Assembly (NCBI GenBank): GCA_031289755.1
Contig: JAITOU010000023.1
Coordinates: 102,837 to 166,836 of the forward strand
Length of the DNA stretch: 64,000 nucleotides
Direction: 5' to 3'
Source of the DNA: Clostridiales bacterium
GTDB taxonomy: Bacteria; Bacillota; Clostridia; Christensenellales; JAISNN01
Position numbers and translations under genes: made by a program
The notes under the pieces: model-generated
The model's database searches: none
What the model was told of the DNA's origin: nothing
What the model saw: only the letters and a program-made list of their open reading frames with translations
Shown here: positions 8,794 to 63,447 of the stretch, piece by piece
How the letters are laid out: each line of letters begins with the position of its first letter
How positions within the stretch are numbered: the stretch's first letter is position 1

Positions 8794-8952
8794 GAGTTTA
8801 CAAAACTCTTAATTTAAAGACCGTATGTTCGCATATGCGAACCAAAGAGAGTTGACAAAACTCTTAAATTAAAGGTCATATGTTCGCATATGCGAACTGA
8901 ATTGAGTTTGACAAACTCTTATTTTACGGACCATGCGTTCGCATATGCGAAC
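8794..8952 (+). repeat. Three tandem 55-bp modules, each with a GAGTT..AACTC inverted repeat and the perfect palindrome GTTCGCATATGCGAAC
   Basis: Units at 8794-8842, 8849-8897 and 8904-8952. Palindromes at 8827-8842, 8882-8897 and 8937-8952, spaced exactly 55 bp apart. Confidence 0.9.
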
Positions 8953-8979
8953 TGTACCGTATCCGTCAAGGAGAAGATT

Positions 8980-9192
8980 ATGACGTTAGCATTTGCGCCG
9001 TTCGGCAGAGAAATGATTATCAAGCAAATAAACGCCGATGACAAGACCAAAAGACATCTCGAAAATCTCGGTATGGCGGTCGGCGGCAGCGTTACTTCTA
9101 TGTTTGACAGCGACGGCAACGTCGTCTTAAAAATCAAGGATTGCCGTGTCGCGCTCAATAGGGCGTTGGCAATGAAGATAGTAGTCGCTTAA
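8980..9192 (+). CDS. feoA: FeoA-family protein
   Basis: 70 aa from the ATG at 8980, after AAGGAG. The track's 8890 start reads through the repeat array. SH3-like FeoA pattern (GREMIIKQINADDKTKRHLENLGMAVG). Confidence 0.85.
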   Translation: MTLAFAPFGREMIIKQINADDKTKRHLENLGMAVGGSVTSMFDSDGNVVLKIKDCRVALNRALAMKIVVA

Positions 9193-9272: not shown

Positions 9273-9506
9273 ATGGACAAAAAACTCAACGACTTTATTC
9301 CCGAAGAAAAGGGGAGAGTCAAATCAATAACGGCGGAAGGCAAGATAAGACGCCGCCTTTTTGACATGGGCGTCACGCCCGGAGCCGAAATCGTTATGCG
9401 CAAGACCGCCCCTCTCGGCGACCCTATCGAGGTCACCGTCAGGGGTTACGAGCTGTCGCTGCGCAAGAGCGAAGCGGAAACCGTACTTATGGAGGTTGTC
9501 AAATGA
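9273..9506 (+). CDS. feoA: FeoA-family protein (second copy)
   Basis: 77 aa with the pattern RRRLFDMGVTPGAEI...GDPIEVTVRGYELSLRKSEA. Its stop overlaps the feoB start (ATGA). Confidence 0.85.
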   Translation: MDKKLNDFIPEEKGRVKSITAEGKIRRRLFDMGVTPGAEIVMRKTAPLGDPIEVTVRGYELSLRKSEAETVLMEVVK

Positions 9507-11800
9507 AATTTGCGTTAGCAGGAAATCCGAACAGCGGAAAGACGACGCTTTTTAACGCGTTGACCGGCAGCACTGCCCACGTCGGCAATTGGCCGGGCGT
9601 CACAATAGACAAAAAATCAGGCATTTACCGCAAGTCCGCCGAAAAAGCCGAAATCATCGATTTGCCGGGAATATATTCTCTTTCGCCTTATTCGCCGGAA
9701 GAGATAGTGTCGAGAAATTTTTTGCTCGGAGAAAGTCCCGATTGTATAATCAACATCGTCGACGCGACAAATCTCGAAAGAAATCTCTATCTGACGACAC
9801 AGCTCATGGAGCTGGACATTCCGATAGTAGTCGCGCTCAACATGATAGACGTCGTTGAAAAGAACAAGGACACGATAGACGCCGACGGATTGAGCAAAAT
9901 ATTAGGCGTACCCGTCGCGACTATAAGCGCGCTCAAAGGCACGGGTATCAAAGAGCTTATGGATAAGGGTATCGAAGCGGTCAAGCGCGGCAGACAAGCC
10001 GAAACCGTTCTCAAAAAGAGCGGAGCAGCCGTACTTATCTCAAAAATCGCCGCGCTTTACGGCGAAAACAAGACGAAGCACCCTTTATTTCACGCCGTCA
10101 AGCTCATAGAAGACGACGAAATCGAAAAGGAAAATTTCCCCGAGATAGCGATTAAAGCGGCGGCTTTAAAAGCCGGTACGGATACGGGAATATTTGAAGG
10201 CGATTTTGAAGGCTATATCGCCGACGCGAGATACAAATACATCTCAGCCGAATTACCGGCCGCCTTCAAAAAAGCTCCTAAGCAAGGCAGCCTGACAAAA
10301 AGCGACAAAATCGACAAGGTTCTCACTCACAAGGTTTGGGGAATACCGATATTTCTCGTCATCATGCTCGCGGTCTTTCACATCACGTTCAGCGAAAACT
10401 TTTTGTTTTTGGGCTTGTTTATACCTGAAGGAACTTTTGACCATGCAATCTTCGGCACGGACGCGATAAATTCGCCCGGTGTGATTATCTTTAATCTCAT
10501 GGATTGGGCGACCGTTTCTTTGGGAGAAGTCATAGCGTCGCTCTTTCCGGACCCGACATGGTATGCAAGCCTGATAAACGACGGCTTGCTCGGCGGCTTG
10601 TTTGCGGTGCTATCCTTTGTACCGCAGATACTCGTACTTTTTTTGTTTCTCTCGATATTAGAGGACAGCGGATATATGGCGCGCGTGGCGTTTATTATGG
10701 ACAGAGCGTTCCGCCGTTTCGGGCTTTCGGGCAAGGCGTTTATGCCGCTCGTAATGTGCTTCGGCTGCGGCGTTCCGGGAATAATGGCGACGAGAACTCT
10801 CGAAAACGAACAGGAAAGAAAGCGCACGATTTTTCTCGCTCCTTTCTTTTCGTGCGGAGCTAAGCTGCCGATATGGGCGGCATTCGCGGGCGTCTTTGCC
10901 CATTACAGGGGACTGAATGCCGAATTTACGGTTTTTTCGATGTACATACTCGGCATAGCCGTAGCGGTCATATCGTCGTTCATTTTAAAACGGACGATAA
11001 TCAAGGGCGAAACGCCGCCGTTTATTATGGAATTGCCTACATATCATTTACCGCAGGTCAAAAACACGGTCATTCACCTTTGGGAGAAGCTCAAACATTA
11101 TGTAATAAGAGCCGGCACGATTATAGCCGGAGCGGTCGTAGTCATCTGGTTTTTGACGTCGTTTAGCTTCAACATCGGCGCGGGACTCGTAGAAGACAGC
11201 GGCGACAGTATCTTGGGCGTCATTTCAAACGGTCTAAAATGGATTTTTTATCCGCTCGGCTTCGGCATGGGTGAGAACGGCTGGAAGTTTGTCGTAGCGA
11301 CTATCACGGGACTGCTCGCCAAAGAAGTTGTCGTGGCGACAATGGGTATCTTTGCCGGAATGGACGGCGACGAAGCATTAGAGACAGAAGGCTCGGAATT
11401 GGGCGATACTCCGCTCGGACTTATGATTATCAGCATAGGGGGAGTACTCGGCGGACTCGATATCGCCGTTCCGGCCATGTTTGCCTTTATGGCGTTCAAC
11501 CTTTTGAGCGTGCCTTGTATGGCGGCGGTAGCCGCCGCAAAGGCGGAATTTAAAAACAACAAATGGCTCTGGAAGGCAATAGCTTTTTGGATAATAACGG
11601 CGTATGCCGTAGCTTGCGTAATCTTTTGGCTCGGCGTTCTCTACACCTTGGCATGGTGGGTAGGATTGCTCGCAACGGTAGGCTTAGCAGTCTTGGTCGT
11701 CTACGGCGTGAGATTTGCCGGAGCTTTAATCGACAAGAAAAACGGCAAAACGGATAAAATAAACATCAAAGAGCTTTTTCTCTTCAAAAAAATAAAATAA
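9503..11800 (+). CDS. feoB: Ferrous iron transporter FeoB
   Basis: 765 aa. N-terminal G domain (GNPNSGKTTLFN, DLPG, NMID) followed by a polytopic membrane domain. Confidence 0.97.
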   Translation: MKFALAGNPNSGKTTLFNALTGSTAHVGNWPGVTIDKKSGIYRKSAEKAEIIDLPGIYSLSPYSPEEIVSRNFLLGESPDCIINIVDATNLERNLYLTTQLMELDIPIVVALNMIDVVEKNKDTIDADGLSKILGVPVATISALKGTGIKELMDKGIEAVKRGRQAETVLKKSGAAVLISKIAALYGENKTKHPLFHAVKLIEDDEIEKENFPEIAIKAAALKAGTDTGIFEGDFEGYIADARYKYISAELPAAFKKAPKQGSLTKSDKIDKVLTHKVWGIPIFLVIMLAVFHITFSENFLFLGLFIPEGTFDHAIFGTDAINSPGVIIFNLMDWATVSLGEVIASLFPDPTWYASLINDGLLGGLFAVLSFVPQILVLFLFLSILEDSGYMARVAFIMDRAFRRFGLSGKAFMPLVMCFGCGVPGIMATRTLENEQERKRTIFLAPFFSCGAKLPIWAAFAGVFAHYRGLNAEFTVFSMYILGIAVAVISSFILKRTIIKGETPPFIMELPTYHLPQVKNTVIHLWEKLKHYVIRAGTIIAGAVVVIWFLTSFSFNIGAGLVEDSGDSILGVISNGLKWIFYPLGFGMGENGWKFVVATITGLLAKEVVVATMGIFAGMDGDEALETEGSELGDTPLGLMIISIGGVLGGLDIAVPAMFAFMAFNLLSVPCMAAVAAAKAEFKNNKWLWKAIAFWIITAYAVACVIFWLGVLYTLAWWVGLLATVGLAVLVVYGVRFAGALIDKKNGKTDKINIKELFLFKKIK

Positions 11801-14289: not shown

Positions 14290-14414
14290 ACGCGCTCCTT
14301 AAAATAAGCCTGTCGGGCAAGAAGATAAATTATAAGCAAGGATTTCTTAATTATTACAGTGTATGAAAAAGCCGTATTTACATTGCTTTTTTTGCCGAAA
14401 CATTGTATAATAGA

Positions 14415-14570
14415 TTAGTCCTATAACCTATCCGCCGACATATTTTGCGTCTTTTTGGCTTATACATCGTTGCATTATCCTAATGTAGCTTACGCTACAC
14501 GTCGTCAAATGCGCCTTGTATAAGCCAAAAATCCGCTAAAATCTGTTCGTCATATAGGTTATAGGACTAA
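14415..14570 (+). repeat. Rod-like hairpin element, copy 1 of 3
   Basis: 17-bp perfect outer stem, 15-bp perfect middle stem and an apical GTAGC-TTAC-GCTAC hairpin. 94% identical (9 differences in 156 nt) to 37032-37187. Confidence 0.9.
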
Positions 14571-14638
14571 TAAAATATTATCGCGCCGCAAACGCTTTTT
14601 TAAAGATTTAGACCTTACAGAGTACTACGGAGAAAAAT

Positions 14639-15418
14639 ATGCTCAAATTGTGTCCGTTAGGCAGCGGAAGCAAAGGAAATTGTATTTATTTAGAATCCGG
14701 AGAGTCCAGGCTGCTGATAGACGCGGGCTTGCCTTTTTTGGAGATAAAAAGACGTTTAAGAGAGATTGACGTCCGCCTTTGCGACCTTACGGGAGTTGTC
14801 ATAACCCACGAACACACCGACCATATCAACGGTCTTTCGGGCTTTTGCGGAAGCGGCGTTCCCGTTTTTGTCCACGACTATGTCGTGAGAATTATCGAAA
14901 GCAAATTTCCTAAGCTCGATATAAGGGGCATAAGAGAAGAAGCATTTGATTTGTCGGGGCTTAGAGTCAAGCCCTTTAAGATACCGCATGACGCCGTATA
15001 TCCCTTAGGATACAGATTTACCGACGGCAAGCTTTCGGCAAGCGTAGCGACGGATATAGGACGCGTCACGGAGAGTATAATAGACAACATGAAGGACAGC
15101 GACCTGATTGTCGCGGAAGCCAATCACGACGAAGATATGCTCATGAAGGGCGCATACCCTTATCAGTTAAAACAACGTATAATAGGCGGCAAGGGGCATA
15201 TCAACAACGCTTTGTCGGCGGAATTATTGACAAAAATCGTGACGGGACGCACAAAGAATATCTTTTTGGCTCATTTGAGCGAAGAAAATAATTTGCCGGA
15301 ATTAGCCTTCGACATAGTGGCAAAGTATTTATCGGCGCATAATATACACGAAGGCTCGGACGTAAAAATCGAGGTTTTGAAGCAGAGAGAAAGGGGAAGC
15401 CTTACGGTAGTGTATTAG
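14639..15418 (+). CDS. MBL-fold metallo-hydrolase (YycJ/WalJ-like)
   Basis: 259 aa. Contains GSGSKGNC and THEHTDHINGL. Confidence 0.85.
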   Translation: MLKLCPLGSGSKGNCIYLESGESRLLIDAGLPFLEIKRRLREIDVRLCDLTGVVITHEHTDHINGLSGFCGSGVPVFVHDYVVRIIESKFPKLDIRGIREEAFDLSGLRVKPFKIPHDAVYPLGYRFTDGKLSASVATDIGRVTESIIDNMKDSDLIVAEANHDEDMLMKGAYPYQLKQRIIGGKGHINNALSAELLTKIVTGRTKNIFLAHLSEENNLPELAFDIVAKYLSAHNIHEGSDVKIEVLKQRERGSLTVVY

Positions 15419-32160: not shown

Positions 32161-32217
32161 AAAACGGATTGTTTTATTAAGCTGTATTCAATACAGTTTA
32201 ATAAAACAATCCGTTTT
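32161..32217. repeat. 57-bp near-perfect palindrome (28-bp arms, 1 mismatch)
   Basis: AAAACGGATTGTTTTATTAAGCTGTATT-C-AATACAGTTTAATAAAACAATCCGTTTT. Confidence 0.9.
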
Positions 32218-32413: not shown

Positions 32414-34105
32414 ATGGATTATATAAAAGAAATTGCGGAATTTATAAAAATAGACGGTGTTGAGCAAGGGGAGATAATTGCCGCCGTCGTGCCTGCCGCC
32501 GAAAGCGCTTTCGGGGATTATTCTTTGCCGTGCTTTAAATTTTCTAAGGTTTTAAAAAAATCGCCGAATTTGATAGCGGCGGAATTGAAAGAAAGCTTGT
32601 CGGCAAGCAAGCCGGATTTTATCGAAAAAATCGATGCGGTCGGCGGATATTTAAATTTCACTCTTGACAGAATGCTTTTTGTCAAAGCGACCTTGACCGA
32701 TATTATTGCAAGGGGAGCGGATTACGGCTCTTCGGACGAAGGGAGCGGCAAGACCGTTTGTATAGATTTTTCCTCTATCAATATCGCGAAGCCTTTTCAT
32801 ATAGGTCATCTCGGAACGACGGTGATAGGGGCTGCGCTCTACCGTATATTTAAAAAGTTAGGATACAATGTCGTCGGTATCAATCATCTCGGAGATTTCG
32901 GAACGCAATTCGGCAAGCTCATAGTCGCATACAAGCTCTGGGGCGACAAGACCGATATCGAGAAAAACGGCTTAAAATCGCTTGTCGATATTTACGTCAG
33001 ATTTCACAAGGAAGAAGAAGACAAGCCGGAGCTTACCGCGAGAGCGAGAGAATGGTTTTTAAGGATAGAAAAGGGCGATGCGGAAGCGACGGAGCTTTTT
33101 AATTTTTTTAAAGCTATAACGATGAAGGAAGTAGACAAGACCTACGAAAGACTCGGCGTTCATTTTGACAGCTACGCCGGAGAAAGCTTTTATAACGACA
33201 AAATGCAGCCGGTTATAGACGAGCTAAAAGCAAAAAATCTCTTGGAGATAAGCGACGGCGCGTCGATTGTAGACCTTTCGCCGTACGATATGCCGCCTTG
33301 TCTTATACTTAGAAGCGACGGCGCGTCTTTGTACGCGACAAGGGATTTGGCGACGATTTTTTATAGGAAAAAAACCTACGATTTTGATAAATGCCTTTAT
33401 GTCGTGGCGTATCAGCAAAACCTGCATTTCAAACAGGTTTTTAAGGTCATCGAATTGCTCGGTCACGAATATTACAAAGACCTTATACACGTAGCTTACG
33501 GCATGGTTTCGTTAGAAGAAGGCGCGATGTCGACCAGAAAGGGCAACATGGTCTATTTAAGCGACGTTCTCGATAAGGCAAGCGAAAAATCTCTGGCGAT
33601 AATCGGAGAAAAGTCGCCCGACTTAAAAAATCCGCGTGAAACGGCGGAAGCCGTCGGAGTAGGCGCGGTGATTTTTGGCGCACTCATCAATAACCGAATC
33701 AAGGACAACGTATTTTCTTACGAAAAAATACTCAATTTTGACGGCGAAACTGGGCCGTATCTCCAATACACCTATGCGAGATGCAACAGCATTTTGGAAA
33801 AGGCGGGGAAAATCGGCGATGCGGATATGTCGTCGATAGCCGGCGACGAAGCCTATGAGCTTGTCAAGCTGCTCAAACGCTATCCCGAAGTCTTAAAGTC
33901 GGCTAAGGAAAATTACGAACCGAGCTTTGTCACGAGATATCTCATCGACACGGCTCAGGCTTATAACAAATTTTATTTTGAATACAGAATACTCAACGAA
34001 AAGCAAGAGGTTAAAAACGCACGCGTCATGCTGACAAAAGCCGCTGCCGGAATATTAAAGGACGGGTTCGGGATAATCGGAATAAAAGCCGTAGAGCATA
34101 TGTAA
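32414..34105 (+). CDS. argS: Arginine--tRNA ligase
   Basis: 563 aa. Contains PFHIGHLG and MSTRKG (a KMSKS variant), with a C-terminal anticodon-binding domain. Confidence 0.97.
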   Translation: MDYIKEIAEFIKIDGVEQGEIIAAVVPAAESAFGDYSLPCFKFSKVLKKSPNLIAAELKESLSASKPDFIEKIDAVGGYLNFTLDRMLFVKATLTDIIARGADYGSSDEGSGKTVCIDFSSINIAKPFHIGHLGTTVIGAALYRIFKKLGYNVVGINHLGDFGTQFGKLIVAYKLWGDKTDIEKNGLKSLVDIYVRFHKEEEDKPELTARAREWFLRIEKGDAEATELFNFFKAITMKEVDKTYERLGVHFDSYAGESFYNDKMQPVIDELKAKNLLEISDGASIVDLSPYDMPPCLILRSDGASLYATRDLATIFYRKKTYDFDKCLYVVAYQQNLHFKQVFKVIELLGHEYYKDLIHVAYGMVSLEEGAMSTRKGNMVYLSDVLDKASEKSLAIIGEKSPDLKNPRETAEAVGVGAVIFGALINNRIKDNVFSYEKILNFDGETGPYLQYTYARCNSILEKAGKIGDADMSSIAGDEAYELVKLLKRYPEVLKSAKENYEPSFVTRYLIDTAQAYNKFYFEYRILNEKQEVKNARVMLTKAAAGILKDGFGIIGIKAVEHM

Positions 34106-36379: not shown

Positions 36380-37003
36380 ATGAAGATTTTGACAATTGTA
36401 AATTCCGTTTTGGCGGAAAACACTTATATAGTCTATGACGAAGCGACTTTAAAGGGCTTTATCGTAGACCCCGGCTCGGACGGAGAGAGAATAGAATCGG
36501 CTATCGGGGATAACGGACTGATTGTAGACACGGTTCTATTGACGCACGGACATTTTGACCATGCGCAATCTGCGCGGTTTTTTCAAAAGAAAAAGCTCAA
36601 AGTTTACATTCACAAAGCCGACGGCGAAAAGCTGTATTCGCGGTTTAATTTGAGCCGTTATACCGGCTACGCCTTTGAAGAGCTGCACGCCGACGCCGAA
36701 TTGTCCGACGGTGATATTGTCAATGCCGCAGGCTTTGATATCAAGACGGTTTTTACGCCGGGACACTCTAAGGGCGGCGTGTGTTATTATCTCAAAGAAC
36801 ACGGAGTCTTGTTCTCGGGCGACACGCTGTTTTCGGACGGGATAGGAAGAAGCGATTTTTATGACGGCGACTTCGCAACCCTAAAAAATTCCATTGAAAC
36901 GCGGCTTTTTATTCTCGACGGCGCGACGGCGGTTTTTCCCGGTCACGACGAAGCCACGACGATAGCAAAGGAACGGAATAACAAGGATTTATTCGGTGTA
37001 TAA
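36380..37003 (+). CDS. MBL-fold metallo-hydrolase (glyoxalase II-like)
   Basis: 207 aa. Contains LLTHGHFDH and FTPGHSKG. Confidence 0.9.
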   Translation: MKILTIVNSVLAENTYIVYDEATLKGFIVDPGSDGERIESAIGDNGLIVDTVLLTHGHFDHAQSARFFQKKKLKVYIHKADGEKLYSRFNLSRYTGYAFEELHADAELSDGDIVNAAGFDIKTVFTPGHSKGGVCYYLKEHGVLFSGDTLFSDGIGRSDFYDGDFATLKNSIETRLFILDGATAVFPGHDEATTIAKERNNKDLFGV

Positions 37004-37031
37004 TGAAGCATATAAGAAACGATATAATAGA

Positions 37032-37187
37032 TTAGTCCTATAACCTATCCGCCGACATATTTTGCGTCTTTTTGCCTTATACATCGTTGCCTTTTCCTTG
37101 TGTAGCTTATGCTACACGGCGTCAAATGCGCCTTGTATAAGGCAAAAATCCGCTACAATCTGTTCGTCATATAGGTTATAGGACTAA
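37032..37187 (+). repeat. Rod-like hairpin element, copy 2 of 3
   Basis: Same architecture as copy 1. A compensatory G-C to C-G exchange sits in the 15-bp stem (37075/37142 vs 14458/14525). Confidence 0.9.
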
Positions 37188-37364
37188 TCTAATATAGAAA
37201 GTAACGATCAGGGGGTGATGTATATAAGGAAGTCAGGACAATGGAAAATATGAAAATGTTCGTACATAAATAAATTAGAACAATGGGAGATTGTTCCGTA
37301 CATAAATAAATTAGGGATTTTTATAAAGTAAGTAAAAAAATATTAAAAAGGGGATAGTATACTT

Positions 37365-38609
37365 ATGGATAAAAATCTTATCGCTAACCAATCCAATGTC
37401 ACAATATTACCGGAAGCACCGAACAGAATGCGGTCGATAGACCAGATTCGCGGACTGCTTATATTTTTAAACGCCGTAACTTATATTTGCGGTGCGTTTG
37501 TAGCAATAACCTCAAAGCTTCCGTTTGTTAACGGAGACAAATTTACGTTTGAATTATTGAAGGGCATTCCGCTCGACGATATTTTCTTGCCGATGTTCGT
37601 TTTTATCATGGGCTTAACGGCTTGCAGCAGCTTCAAAAAATTGCAGGAAGCCAAAGGGCAAACCTTTGCGGCTAAGAAATTCGCCTTTAAATACTTGGTT
37701 TTAATCGGCTTCGGTACGGTGATGATGGACGGACTTGCTTGTGCTTACGAATTTATCGCCGGAAAAATTTTAAGCGAATTTAAACTCGGCGAGCAAGCCG
37801 CAATCATATTGTTTTTTGCTTGTCTGCCGCTGATACTGTTTTATTTTATAACCAAAATTATCAGGAACAAAAAGCTAACCAAAATCGCCGGATTGATGAT
37901 AAAAATCGTTTGGGCATTCGGCGGCGCGGCGGCGGTATTTTTCTTGGCGACCTCGACGGGGGCAATTTTTAGCGGTGTGCCGCAGCAAAATATTTGGGAC
38001 GTTTTTCAAACGATAGGTCTGGCGGGTCTGATAGCCCTTCCGTTTATGGGACTGAATAGATATGGCAAGCTTATCGCGGCTCTTGCTTTGGGCGTGCTTT
38101 TGACGGCGTTTTACCGATACGGCGGTTTACAGGGCTTCGGCGACAATATCTTTAACGGCGGTCTTGTAGGCGGCTTCGGCTGGGCTATCGCTGTTTTGTT
38201 AGGCGGATACTTCCGTGACGTCAAGCAAAAGCCCGTTTTGTATTGGGTGTCCGCTATCGTCGCGGTAGCCGTTCCGGCGGTGCTTGTCACGGTCTTTGGC
38301 TTTGTGGCGGTAAGGCGCGGCTGTACGCCCGTTTACGCGGTTTTTGCCTCCGGCTTAGGCGCGGTTATCTGGGGGATTTTTAATCTGATAGAGAGAGTCT
38401 ATAAGCCTAAGTACAGCTTTTTGAGTATCTGGGGCGGCTCGTCGCTCCTGACCTACGCCTTATCTATGGTTTTCGCGACCCTGCTTCAAACCTTTGTGCC
38501 GATAGAAACGCCGCTTTTTGCGGCAATAATCGTCTCCGTCGTCATCGTCGGCGGCTTATACGCTTTAAATCATATTTTGACCCGAAAAGATATACACATC
38601 AAAATATAG
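37365..38609 (+). CDS. Polytopic membrane protein (DUF5009 / heparan-alpha-glucosaminide N-acetyltransferase-like N-terminus)
   Basis: 414 aa with at least 10 hydrophobic segments. RMRSIDQIRGLLIFLN resembles the R..S.D..RG start of that family. Confidence 0.45.
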   Translation: MDKNLIANQSNVTILPEAPNRMRSIDQIRGLLIFLNAVTYICGAFVAITSKLPFVNGDKFTFELLKGIPLDDIFLPMFVFIMGLTACSSFKKLQEAKGQTFAAKKFAFKYLVLIGFGTVMMDGLACAYEFIAGKILSEFKLGEQAAIILFFACLPLILFYFITKIIRNKKLTKIAGLMIKIVWAFGGAAAVFFLATSTGAIFSGVPQQNIWDVFQTIGLAGLIALPFMGLNRYGKLIAALALGVLLTAFYRYGGLQGFGDNIFNGGLVGGFGWAIAVLLGGYFRDVKQKPVLYWVSAIVAVAVPAVLVTVFGFVAVRRGCTPVYAVFASGLGAVIWGIFNLIERVYKPKYSFLSIWGGSSLLTYALSMVFATLLQTFVPIETPLFAAIIVSVVIVGGLYALNHILTRKDIHIKI

Positions 38610-41806: not shown

Positions 41807-42008
41807 TAAAAAATCCCTTTTTATTTTGTTGCGGAAACACGGTGCAAAGCAAATAAAACTTTAAGCCGAGCTTCCTTATATATTTTTTACCTTATATATT
41901 ATATAATATAATCGGAAAAATGCAATATAAAACCGAAAAATTATGAGAGAAAATTATTATATTCAAAAATTTTTTGTAAATATTAAGCGAATATGATATA
42001 ATAGAATT

Positions 42009-42152
42009 GTCATAAACTAAACGCCGACAACTTTTGCGTCTTTTGTCATAAATATCGTTGCATTTTCCTTATGTAGCTAAGCTGCACGTCGTCAAATGCG
42101 CCTTAATCTACGGCAAAAATCCGCTAAAATTTGTTCGGCGTTTAGGTTTAGG
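42009..42152 (+). repeat. Rod-like hairpin element, copy 3 of 3 (diverged)
   Basis: The central core (ATCGTTGCATT.TCCT.ATGTAGCT..GCT.CACGTCGTCAAATGCGCCTT and CAAAAATCCGCTAAAAT.TGTTCG) is conserved. The outer stem is replaced by a different but still complementary sequence. Confidence 0.8.
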
Positions 42153-42191
42153 AGAAGTCTGATAGACTTCTTATATTAAGACGGGGGGATT

Positions 42192-62726: not shown

Positions 62727-62765
62727 AAGTACCGTATCTCAAAAGCAATGCAAAAAAAACAATAT

Positions 62766-62805
62766 GTTCGTATAGCTCAGTAGGATAGAGCGGTCGCCTC
62801 CTAAG
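62766..62805 (+). pseudogene. Truncated 5' half of tRNA-Arg(CCU), ending at the anticodon loop
   Basis: The 40-nt sequence GTTCGTATAGCTCAGTAGGATAGAGCGGTCGCCTCCTAAG matches 62998-63037 with 1 mismatch. No 3' half follows. Confidence 0.8.
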
Positions 62806-62997
62806 GGTATGACCACCGTTTCAAGGTCGAGAGAAAGTAGCAAAAACAAGCCGAAATATGGCAAAAAATGCACAAAAACAGCCCGTTTTTAGAGAACGGG
62901 GAATTGTTCGAAAAGAAATTGTTGTACTTTTGTTGCCTAAACAGACATACCTTTACCCCGCTAAGGGTAAGACGTGTCCATATATGATATATAATCT

Positions 62998-63074
62998 GTT
63001 CGTATAGCTCAGTCGGATAGAGCGGTCGCCTCCTAAGCGACAGGCCGTTGGTTCGAATCCAATTACGAACGCCA
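62998..63074 (+). tRNA. tRNA-Arg (anticodon CCU), CCA encoded
   Basis: Hand-folded cloverleaf. Acceptor GTTCGTA/TACGAAC and D arm GCTC/GAGC. Anticodon stem GTCGC/GCGAC with loop CTCCTAA. T arm GTTGG-TTCGAAT-CCAAT. Discriminator G followed by CCA. Confidence 0.93.
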
Positions 63075-63102: not shown

Positions 63103-63447
63103 TTTCCTTTTTAACCCCTTTTGGTCGTTTTTAACTCGTTTTTGTTAGTTTTTTCAGTACAACAAAAGTACAACAAAAATATTTTCACTTAAAAAAAACG
63201 CTGAAACAAGTCGAAATTAGTTTTTTAAATTTGATATGCTTTATAAACGACTTTTTAATGTGTTGCGTCTTACTCTGATGCTGTAAATTTGACCGTTGCT
63301 GTCCCCATGACTAATTATACCCGTAAACCATTATGCGTACTCGCACGAGCAAAGGGCGGATATTAGTGAAAAACAGAGAAAAATATTTGAAGACGGAATA
63401 TTTTTTGAATATTTTTTGCGAAAAATGGATTTTTTTACTTATTTGTA

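Follow-up and report, generated by a model that had tools for sequence, protein, structure and literature searches.

A lineage-specific, MITE-like palindromic repeat that begins at TATAAT hexamers upstream of three clostridial genes and may be transcribed as a 5′ leader hairpin

Prokaryotic MITEs are small, AT-rich, intergenic sequences, which carry terminal inverted repeats and fading target duplications, and which give rise to stable stem–loop transcripts (PMC10969869, PMC3184786). Among the described families, the Correia elements create promoters at their ends, and RNase III binds or cuts them (PMC2649163). The bcr1 repeats of Bacillus, which are about 155 bp long, are transcribed and carry compensatory changes, while the stability of their structures is variable (PMC3184786). 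Here we describe a repeat present in three copies in a 64,000-nucleotide stretch of DNA, which is called the window below; its genes point to an uncultured spore-forming member of the Clostridiales, and it is located near gyrB/gyrA. The kind of element is already known, while the sequence family is new. The data are best described by a lineage-specific, MITE-like palindromic repeat, which is located at the junction between the −10 box and the transcription start and would be transcribed as a 5′ leader hairpin; we assign to this reading a probability of about 0.55.

The repeated unit is about 166-174 bp long, and its three copies, all intergenic and on the + strand (Table 1), are spaced by 22.6 kb and 5.0 kb, with flanks that are unrelated and could not be aligned with each other. 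The homology between copies 1 and 2 extends over 173 nt (14406-14578 and 37023-37195) with 94% identity and stops abruptly at both ends, while copy 3 is 82-83% identical to both of them. In copies 1 and 2 the terminal inverted repeats reach the ends of this inter-copy homology, with 32-nt arms at 14407-14438 and 14547-14578 in copy 1 (81%), and 33-nt arms at 37023-37055 and 37164-37196 in copy 2 (88% complementary); arms are also seen in copy 3. A preliminary description of this DNA, made by reading the sequence, had placed a TATAAT hexamer just before each copy. The hexamer is indeed there in all three copies, each time followed by AGA, and it forms the outermost left part of the palindrome, the right end being its near-complement (..TCTAATATA). 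The repeated unit is thus larger than the hairpin core given in that description and includes the TATAAT; copy 3, which had been placed at 42009-42152, has the longer span given in Table 1.

Table 1. Positions of the repeat copies and of the associated promoter elements in the window
Feature	Position	Strand	Details
Copy 1, full palindromic unit	14406-14579	+	TATAAT-AGA, hairpin core 14415-14570, then TAAAATAT
Copy 2, full palindromic unit	37023-37196	+	hairpin core 37032-37187
Copy 3, diverged palindromic unit	about 41997-42166	+	hairpin core about 42006-42157
−35-like TTGCTT	14383-14388	+	flanking DNA, 17 nt upstream of copy 1 TATAAT 14406-14411
Sigma-70-type promoter TTGTAA-17 nt-(TGa)TATAAT	41974-42002	+	−10 is the left terminus of copy 3
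Element end sequence			(T)ATAGATTAGTCCTATAACC

Moving in from its ends, a unit is made up of a terminal arm, then an irregular segment, then a middle stem and finally an asymmetric core of ~50 nt, which holds a 6-bp apical hairpin. The irregular segment contains conserved blocks and bulged T residues, with CGCCGACA..TTTTGCGTC pairing with CCGCTAAAAT..TGTTCG. The stems noted before were found as described, namely outer arms of 17 nt, a middle stem of 15 bp and a GTAGC/GCTAC hairpin at the apex. The element is a near-palindrome, and its identity to its reverse complement is 74-76%. The hairpin core of copy 1 folds into a single long imperfect hairpin, as the preliminary description had proposed, with a minimum free energy of −67.4 kcal/mol and a z-score of −14.3; the dinucleotide shuffles had a mean of −25.2 and a standard deviation of 2.95, and none of the 200 was as stable. 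The corresponding values were −68.1 kcal/mol (z = −10.6) for copy 2 and −43.8 kcal/mol (z = −4.4) for copy 3. The minus strand gave −74.7 kcal/mol for copy 1 and −48.9 kcal/mol for copy 3, as compared to −67.4 and −43.8 kcal/mol for the plus strand.

A covariance model was trained on the three copies and scanned over the 64-kb window. It scored 192.5, 187.7 and 135.3 bits for copies 1, 2 and 3, respectively, and detected no fourth copy in the window, so that the two further intergenic copies in the same orientation, which had been noticed before, bring the number to exactly three. The ORFs overlapping the copies are at most 39 amino acids long, differ between the copies and are not conserved, in keeping with the previous remark that the element has no ORF. 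These results confirm that a hairpin-forming, non-coding repeat with three copies is real.

When four full sequences were aligned, 94.7% of the cells were in standard pairs and seven pairs were changed on both sides. None of 500 shuffles reached as high a value, and slid registers dropped to 31-44% paired, although the alignment was fitted to the model, so that these counts lean toward structure. Copies 1 and 2 differ at nine positions, two of which represent one G-C to C-G exchange in the 15-bp stem, while the other seven are outside the strong helices, for which the chance is (92/156)^7, or about 0.03. The variable G·U pairs, three on the plus strand and two on the minus strand, favor neither as the transcribed strand. 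The paired changes are no proof of selection at the RNA level, because the arms of an inverted repeat in DNA also co-vary for reasons unrelated to RNA, the fold of the minus strand is as stable as that of the plus strand or more so, and the wobble pairs are balanced between the strands.

The structure has also decayed in a lineage-specific manner, since the middle stem of copy 3 contains two A·C mismatches on the plus strand, while the CCGCCG/CGTCAT segment is degraded in copies 1 and 2. Such decay would look like that of drifting copies of an ancestral near-perfect palindrome. On the other hand, the blocks CGCCGACA, TTTTGCGTC, CGTCAAATGCGCCTT and AAAAATCCGCTA are 100% conserved between copies that are 82% identical, and the comparison of copies 1 and 2 with copy 3 showed less divergence in the central core and the irregular segments than in the terminal arms. 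MITEs usually show the reverse pattern, and the difference suggests a constraint on the internal sequence.

The preliminary description could not match the element to any RNA family, and the Rfam searches of the window and of the locus gave no relevant match either. At gathering thresholds the whole window returned tRNA-Arg alone. With E-values up to 10, the best match to the region 14300-14700 was the plant MIR868, a generic match between long hairpins that scored 28.5 bits while the gathering score is 200, and 6S (RF00013) and related models did not match the locus even at this level. The exact internal 18-mer CGTCGTCAAATGCGCCTT had 31 chance matches in genome_contigs, a collection with one genome per species; when the element was compared by BLAST to all 31 loci, at most ~23 nt were matched around the seed (four of the loci were inspected, and they were three uncultured Clostridia contigs and one Eubacteriales contig). 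In the JGI metagenome_contigs the exact blocks E+F had no matches and the blocks A+B+F had 20 matches, none of which fit the covariance model. There were no matches to four exact patterns, including the left-arm sequence, in viral_contigs, no match among plasmids and phages in the 'distant' mode of blastn, and no spurious ORF calls spanning the element on record in the protein collection. The known copies are the three in the window and two orthologues in one other strain, and the sequence family is undescribed, as neither Rfam nor the collections of plasmids, phages, viruses, representative genomes and metagenomes gave a match.

The left end of the repeat was compared with the sequences expected of a bacterial promoter. 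In two of the three copies (1 and 3) a TTG is located exactly 17 nt upstream of TATAAT, in the flanking DNA, and with a TTG frequency of 0.019 per position the canonical spacing in two of three copies corresponds to p ~1e-3. The −35 sequence is outside the conserved unit. The promoter scan of copy 3 gave 10/12 matches in addition to the TG extension, while at copy 2 no −35 match was found 16-18 nt upstream. As judged from the sequence, the MBL-fold hydrolase gene (14639-15418) has TTGCTT and the TATAAT of copy 1 as its predicted native promoter. At two or more of the three copies, the TATAAT is probably that of a sigma-A-type promoter which served the downstream gene before the element was there.

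The genes downstream from copies 1, 2 and 3 encode, respectively, a YycJ-like MBL hydrolase, a 414-aa protein without a Pfam match and RbgA. Copy 2 begins 20 nt past the stop codon of the ORF 36380-37003 and is located 168 nt upstream of the ORF 37365-38609, while only 25 nt separate the end of copy 3 from the start codon of rbgA/ylqF (42192). No terminator-like site was found on the plus strand after any of the three copies. Because the 25-nt gap leaves no room for another promoter, copy 3 would be co-transcribed with rbgA, and with this arrangement of sequences rbgA must presumably be transcribed through it. The predicted fold leaves the ribosome binding site free. Between copy 2 and the ORF 37365-38609 there are also two direct copies of a ~21-nt motif, GTTC(C)GTACATAAATAAATTAG, which are ~37 nt apart (~37256-37318) and may be a candidate binding site for a regulator.

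To place the repeat in its phylogenetic context, related sequences were compared at the loci of the copies. The nearest database relatives belong to the same species, with 99% protein identity, and beyond them the identity drops to 74% (RbgA) and 63% (MBL hydrolase). When the flanking proteins were looked up by exact match, the same organism was recovered from one other sample only, with contigs that end inside the repeat, for which copies 1 and 2 alone are a sufficient explanation. In the second strain or sample (JGI 3300005071; L058, L034), which has a nucleotide divergence of 1-2%, the loci of copies 1 and 3 both carry the element. Three substitutions, all at unpaired or helix-edge positions, set its orthologue of copy 1 apart, and the covered part of copy 3 is identical; neither presence nor orientation differs between the two strains at the two loci examined. 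The contigs from Logan SRR14710898 (L032, L033) are 100% identical to the window and end 21-29 nt inside the element, 30 nt into the shared sequence, which fits a k=31 assembly graph that branches at the sequence common to copies 1 and 2.

The element was absent from the orthologous or neighboring regions at five loci of relatives (L035, L036, L037, L059 and L060/L061). The gene order in L059 is the same, with tadA-M14 peptidase on the minus strand and the MBL hydrolase on the plus strand, and it carries a 15-mer, TTGCTTTTTTTGCCG, which is identical at 15/15 positions to the copy 1 promoter; the longest match among 300 shuffles and 41 other real segments was 12. L059 has the −10 sequence TATGAT at the same 17-nt spacing, and then a ~31-nt UTR and the start codon, without the element. 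When positions 14412-14576 were deleted from the window, the remaining sequence aligned best to L059 (TATAAT/ATTATC versus TATGAT/ATTGTC), with a score of 60, as compared to 53 for the TA-duplication model and 49 for the unedited sequence, this empty site being that of a distant relative with an orthologous protein that is 63% identical. The comparison suggests that copy 1 represents an insertion at the junction of the −10 box and the transcribed region of an ancestral promoter, or that the element was lost from this position in L059.

Two other candidates among the relatives were rejected. A long imperfect hairpin upstream of rbgA in L036 (7055-7230) has an 11-mer in common with copy 2, but its similarity was no better than that of shuffles, and the rbgA promoter of L035 was set aside as an empty site for copy 3 because the alignment was unconvincing. 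Separately, the 5′ arm of copy 3 starts with 12 nt (42006-42017, ATTGTCATAAAC) that match 11/12 positions of L059 10006-10017 (ATTGTCATCAAC), which are the first 12 nt past the −10 box of the MBL gene, while copy 3 is located at rbgA. This match could be due to chance, to a resemblance between the target site and the element end, or it could be a hint of the origin. The same region upstream of the MBL gene contains other repeats in the relatives (L059 9600-9790, 9826-9852 and 14255-14401; L060 2660-2925; L061 2826-2860). In L059 they include a GGTCAGTGAGC-type microsatellite and a GC-rich palindromic repeat, GTAGGGGCGGACGCC..CGGCCGCCCG; L060 has three tandem units of ~120 nt, and a GC-rich hairpin, TTCCCCTCCG..GGGGTGGGGCG, is common to L060 and L061. 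Hence, the promoter-proximal region of the MBL gene seems to collect repeats across the whole clade.

The preliminary description had left the choice between a structured RNA, either independently transcribed or a leader, and a miniature mobile element. Of these, the mobile element is better supported, because the repeat is a discrete unit with sharp boundaries and terminal inverted repeats, is restricted to one lineage and is absent from the conserved promoter of a relative. The leader part of the proposal also survives, because no copy is followed by a terminator and copy 3 is so close to the rbgA start codon, while the independent small RNA gene is unsupported, given the lack of terminators and of conservation outside one species. 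The repeat shares with MITEs its small size, the lack of coding capacity and of a transposase ORF, the terminal inverted repeats and the dispersed, sharp-edged copies, and we infer that it has been mobile. That description had named target-site duplications and empty sites in sister strains as marks of an ordinary MITE; the duplications proved ambiguous, and the empty site is found in a distant relative and not in a sister strain. If the element starts with ATAGA, TA flanks are present at all three copies, and if it starts with AGA, AAT flanks are present at two of the three. There are also direct repeats of 8, 7 and 8 nt flanking the copies (GCTTTTTT, ATATAAG and ATATTAAG), with a probability of 8 or more of ~0.055 per locus and a combined Fisher p of ~0.02, although their distances from the element are inconsistent. 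Among 38 ORFs of the window there was no transposase or recombinase, nor was an IS seen whose ends match.

If the repeat is a MITE-like element, its position suggests how it could act. The left end would sit on the −10 box of an existing promoter, so that transcription would start about 7 nt past the −10 box, where the outer stem begins. The mRNA would then open with ~160 nt copied from the element, with the rod-like hairpin flush with the 5′ end, and the −10 box of the occupied promoter would be preserved or regenerated. The most likely consequence would be an altered fate of the mRNA. In Firmicutes, a hairpin flush with the 5′ end of an mRNA protects it against 5′-end-dependent RNases, and the 5′-terminal stem–loop formed by the repeat would be expected to shield the message in this way. 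Alternatively, its perfect helices of 15-17 bp could serve as substrates for RNase III.

The one unusual trait of the repeat is that all three copies are positioned exactly on TATAAT. This could be explained by targeting, either as a TA-rich preference or as IS200/IS605-like insertion, and it could equally reflect the survivorship of those insertions that preserved a promoter; with only three copies these explanations are undecidable. A more specific proposal, which we regard as doubtful, is that the repeat is a hairpin transposable element targeting the sigma-A −10 sequence, inserting into the non-template strand, either within TATAAT or just 3′ of it; at these insertions this strand is the lagging-strand template. 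It is based on the abutment of TATAAT by 3/3 copies, the native −35 sequences at 17 nt in 2/3 and the one empty orthologous promoter. The target might be recognized as single-stranded DNA, as in IS200/IS605, or in the open promoter complex. If this proposal is true, host promoters would emit mRNAs capped with a 5′ rod while the promoter is left undestroyed.

Another explanation is that the repeats are cis-regulatory leader RNAs, in which the hairpin binds a protein or a small molecule, so that the three genes would form a small regulon with paralogous leaders kept under selection. Consistent with this, all three copies are located 5′ of plus-strand genes, start at the −10 box and lack a terminator, and their internal blocks are invariant while the stems vary with compensation. 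However, the three downstream genes have no functional relation to each other, the relatives have orthologous MBL and rbgA leaders without the element, and the searches of Rfam and of the collections of genomes, metagenomes, viruses, plasmids and phages detected nothing similar. In addition, the ribosome binding site is not sequestered by the fold and the middle stem of copy 3 is decayed. We consider such a role unlikely.

Less probable still is a family of independently transcribed sRNAs, which would be encoded by paralogous genes with their own promoters and act as 6S-like or protein-sequestering rods. The constant spacing between the consensus −10 sequence and the hairpin in all copies, the rod-like fold with a large asymmetric apical internal loop and the double changes that maintain the helices would agree with such a family. 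In contrast, no intrinsic terminator follows any copy, and the proximity of copy 3 to the rbgA start codon would make read-through unavoidable. The −35 sequence is outside the conserved unit and is missing at copy 2, the Rfam searches gave no match to 6S or other families even with E-values up to 10, the element is restricted to one species, and the minus strand folds equally well or better. Four observations speak against the alternatives to the MITE-like reading in general: the downstream genes are unrelated, orthologous leaders do not have the element, terminators are lacking and the interior is near-palindromic.

An invertible DNA switch or site-specific recombination site, in which a recombinase would flip the ~120-bp segment between the 17-33-bp inverted repeats, is very improbable. 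Perfect inverted repeats of at least 17 bp are indeed ~120 bp apart just upstream of genes, and known clostridial invertible switches are of similar size. However, inversion of a segment that is itself a near-palindrome would change little, the strong 17-bp arms do not include TATAAT, both strains and all samples seen have the element in one orientation, and there is no recombinase among 38 ORFs of the window. Several other readings were rejected on inspection of the sequence. The arms CCTATAACC / GGTTATAGG do not fit, by eye, the RYYYAAC ... GTTRRRY core of an integron attC site, the neighbors are housekeeping genes and no integrase was found in the window; the TAGCGT motif of a single-strand origin (ssoA) is present only on the minus strand of copy 1; and a DnaA-box cluster and an intrinsic terminator were likewise dismissed.

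The window also contains repeats of other kinds. Three tandem 55-nt units at 8794-8958, which are 75-100% identical and each contain a perfect 16-bp palindrome, GTTCGCATATGCGAAC, and the motif GAGTTTACAAAACTC, are located directly upstream of, and overlap, the start of the FeoA ORF (8890-9192), which is followed by FeoB (9503-11800); from its sequence this arrangement looks like a triplicated operator or promoter array. A partial duplicate of tRNA-Arg(CCT), comprising its first 45 nt as far as the anticodon loop, is found with 96% identity at 62761-62805, 232 nt upstream of the intact gene (62993-63074), which is itself bracketed by a perfect 17-bp inverted repeat (62919-62935 / 63160-63176). 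This duplication may be a remnant of integration or rearrangement. A near-perfect 28-nt palindrome (96%, with a 1-nt loop) is found at 32161-32217, ~200 nt upstream of argS (32414-34105).

The MITE-like repeat would add an example from Clostridia to the short list of promoter-located palindromic repeats which are transcribed as leader hairpins, and the promoters it occupies include that of the normally essential rbgA. If its placement reflects the choice of target, this would be an unusual insertion specificity, and the element would represent a natural 'promoter-preserving' 5′-hairpin cassette. For annotation, it matters that such elements break assemblies and mimic structured RNA genes in scans that use only the sequence.

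The comparison with described systems shows both similarities and differences. Similarly to 6S RNA, the element is rod-like, ~150-200 nt long, with an internal loop and a sigma-70-type promoter. Unlike 6S RNA, it has no more than a 6-bp hairpin as the apical domain past the loop, exists in three copies, lacks a terminator and is not conserved beyond one species. The PATEs of IS200/IS605 and the REP/RAYT elements depend on hairpins, produce no target duplication and insert in a strand-specific manner 3′ of a short fixed sequence. The duplication-free empty site obtained by deleting 14412-14576 and the uniform orientation of the copies are compatible with a PATE. However, PATEs and REP/RAYT elements have separate sub-terminal hairpins at both ends, while the repeat described here is one end-to-end hairpin, and no Y1 transposase or TnpB was seen in the window. 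The resemblance to IS200/IS605 can thus be considered a lead only.

The ERIC/IRU, YPAL, RUP and other MITE families are also AT-rich, intergenic, imperfect palindromes of ~100-170 bp, several of them have TA-type flanks, and their hairpins in transcribed regions alter mRNA stability (PMC3184786, PMC10969869). In contrast to these families, no cognate IS or transposase was identified here, conservation between the two subtypes is lower at the ends than in the core, and all three insertions are located precisely on TATAAT. The bcr1 repeats of the Bacillus cereus group (Group A bcr) share with the element described here their occurrence in Firmicutes, a comparable length (~155 bp in bcr1), the lack of coding capacity, the location in chromosomal intergenic regions and the compensatory changes (PMC3184786). 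Their structural stability is variable and sometimes lost among copies, and they are thought to be non-autonomous mobile elements (PMC3184786), while the present element forms a single rod and has ambiguous target duplications; the likeness is based on their description.

The likeness to the Correia elements (CREE/NEMIS) of Neisseria is also based on their description, and the host belongs to a different phylum. The promoters at the ends of Correia elements read outward, while here the −10 sequence at the left end reads into the element and uses a −35 sequence from the flanking DNA. Correia elements have a clear TA duplication and hundreds of copies, while here the TA flanks depend on where the ends are placed and three copies are known. 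Nevertheless, both are palindromic non-coding repeats (~100-160 bp in Correia), with terminal inverted repeats starting with TATA, and both are located near the 5′ side of genes, where they can form promoters at their ends. Correia elements are co-transcribed with genes as a long hairpin that is bound or cleaved by RNase III (PMC2649163, PMC3184786).
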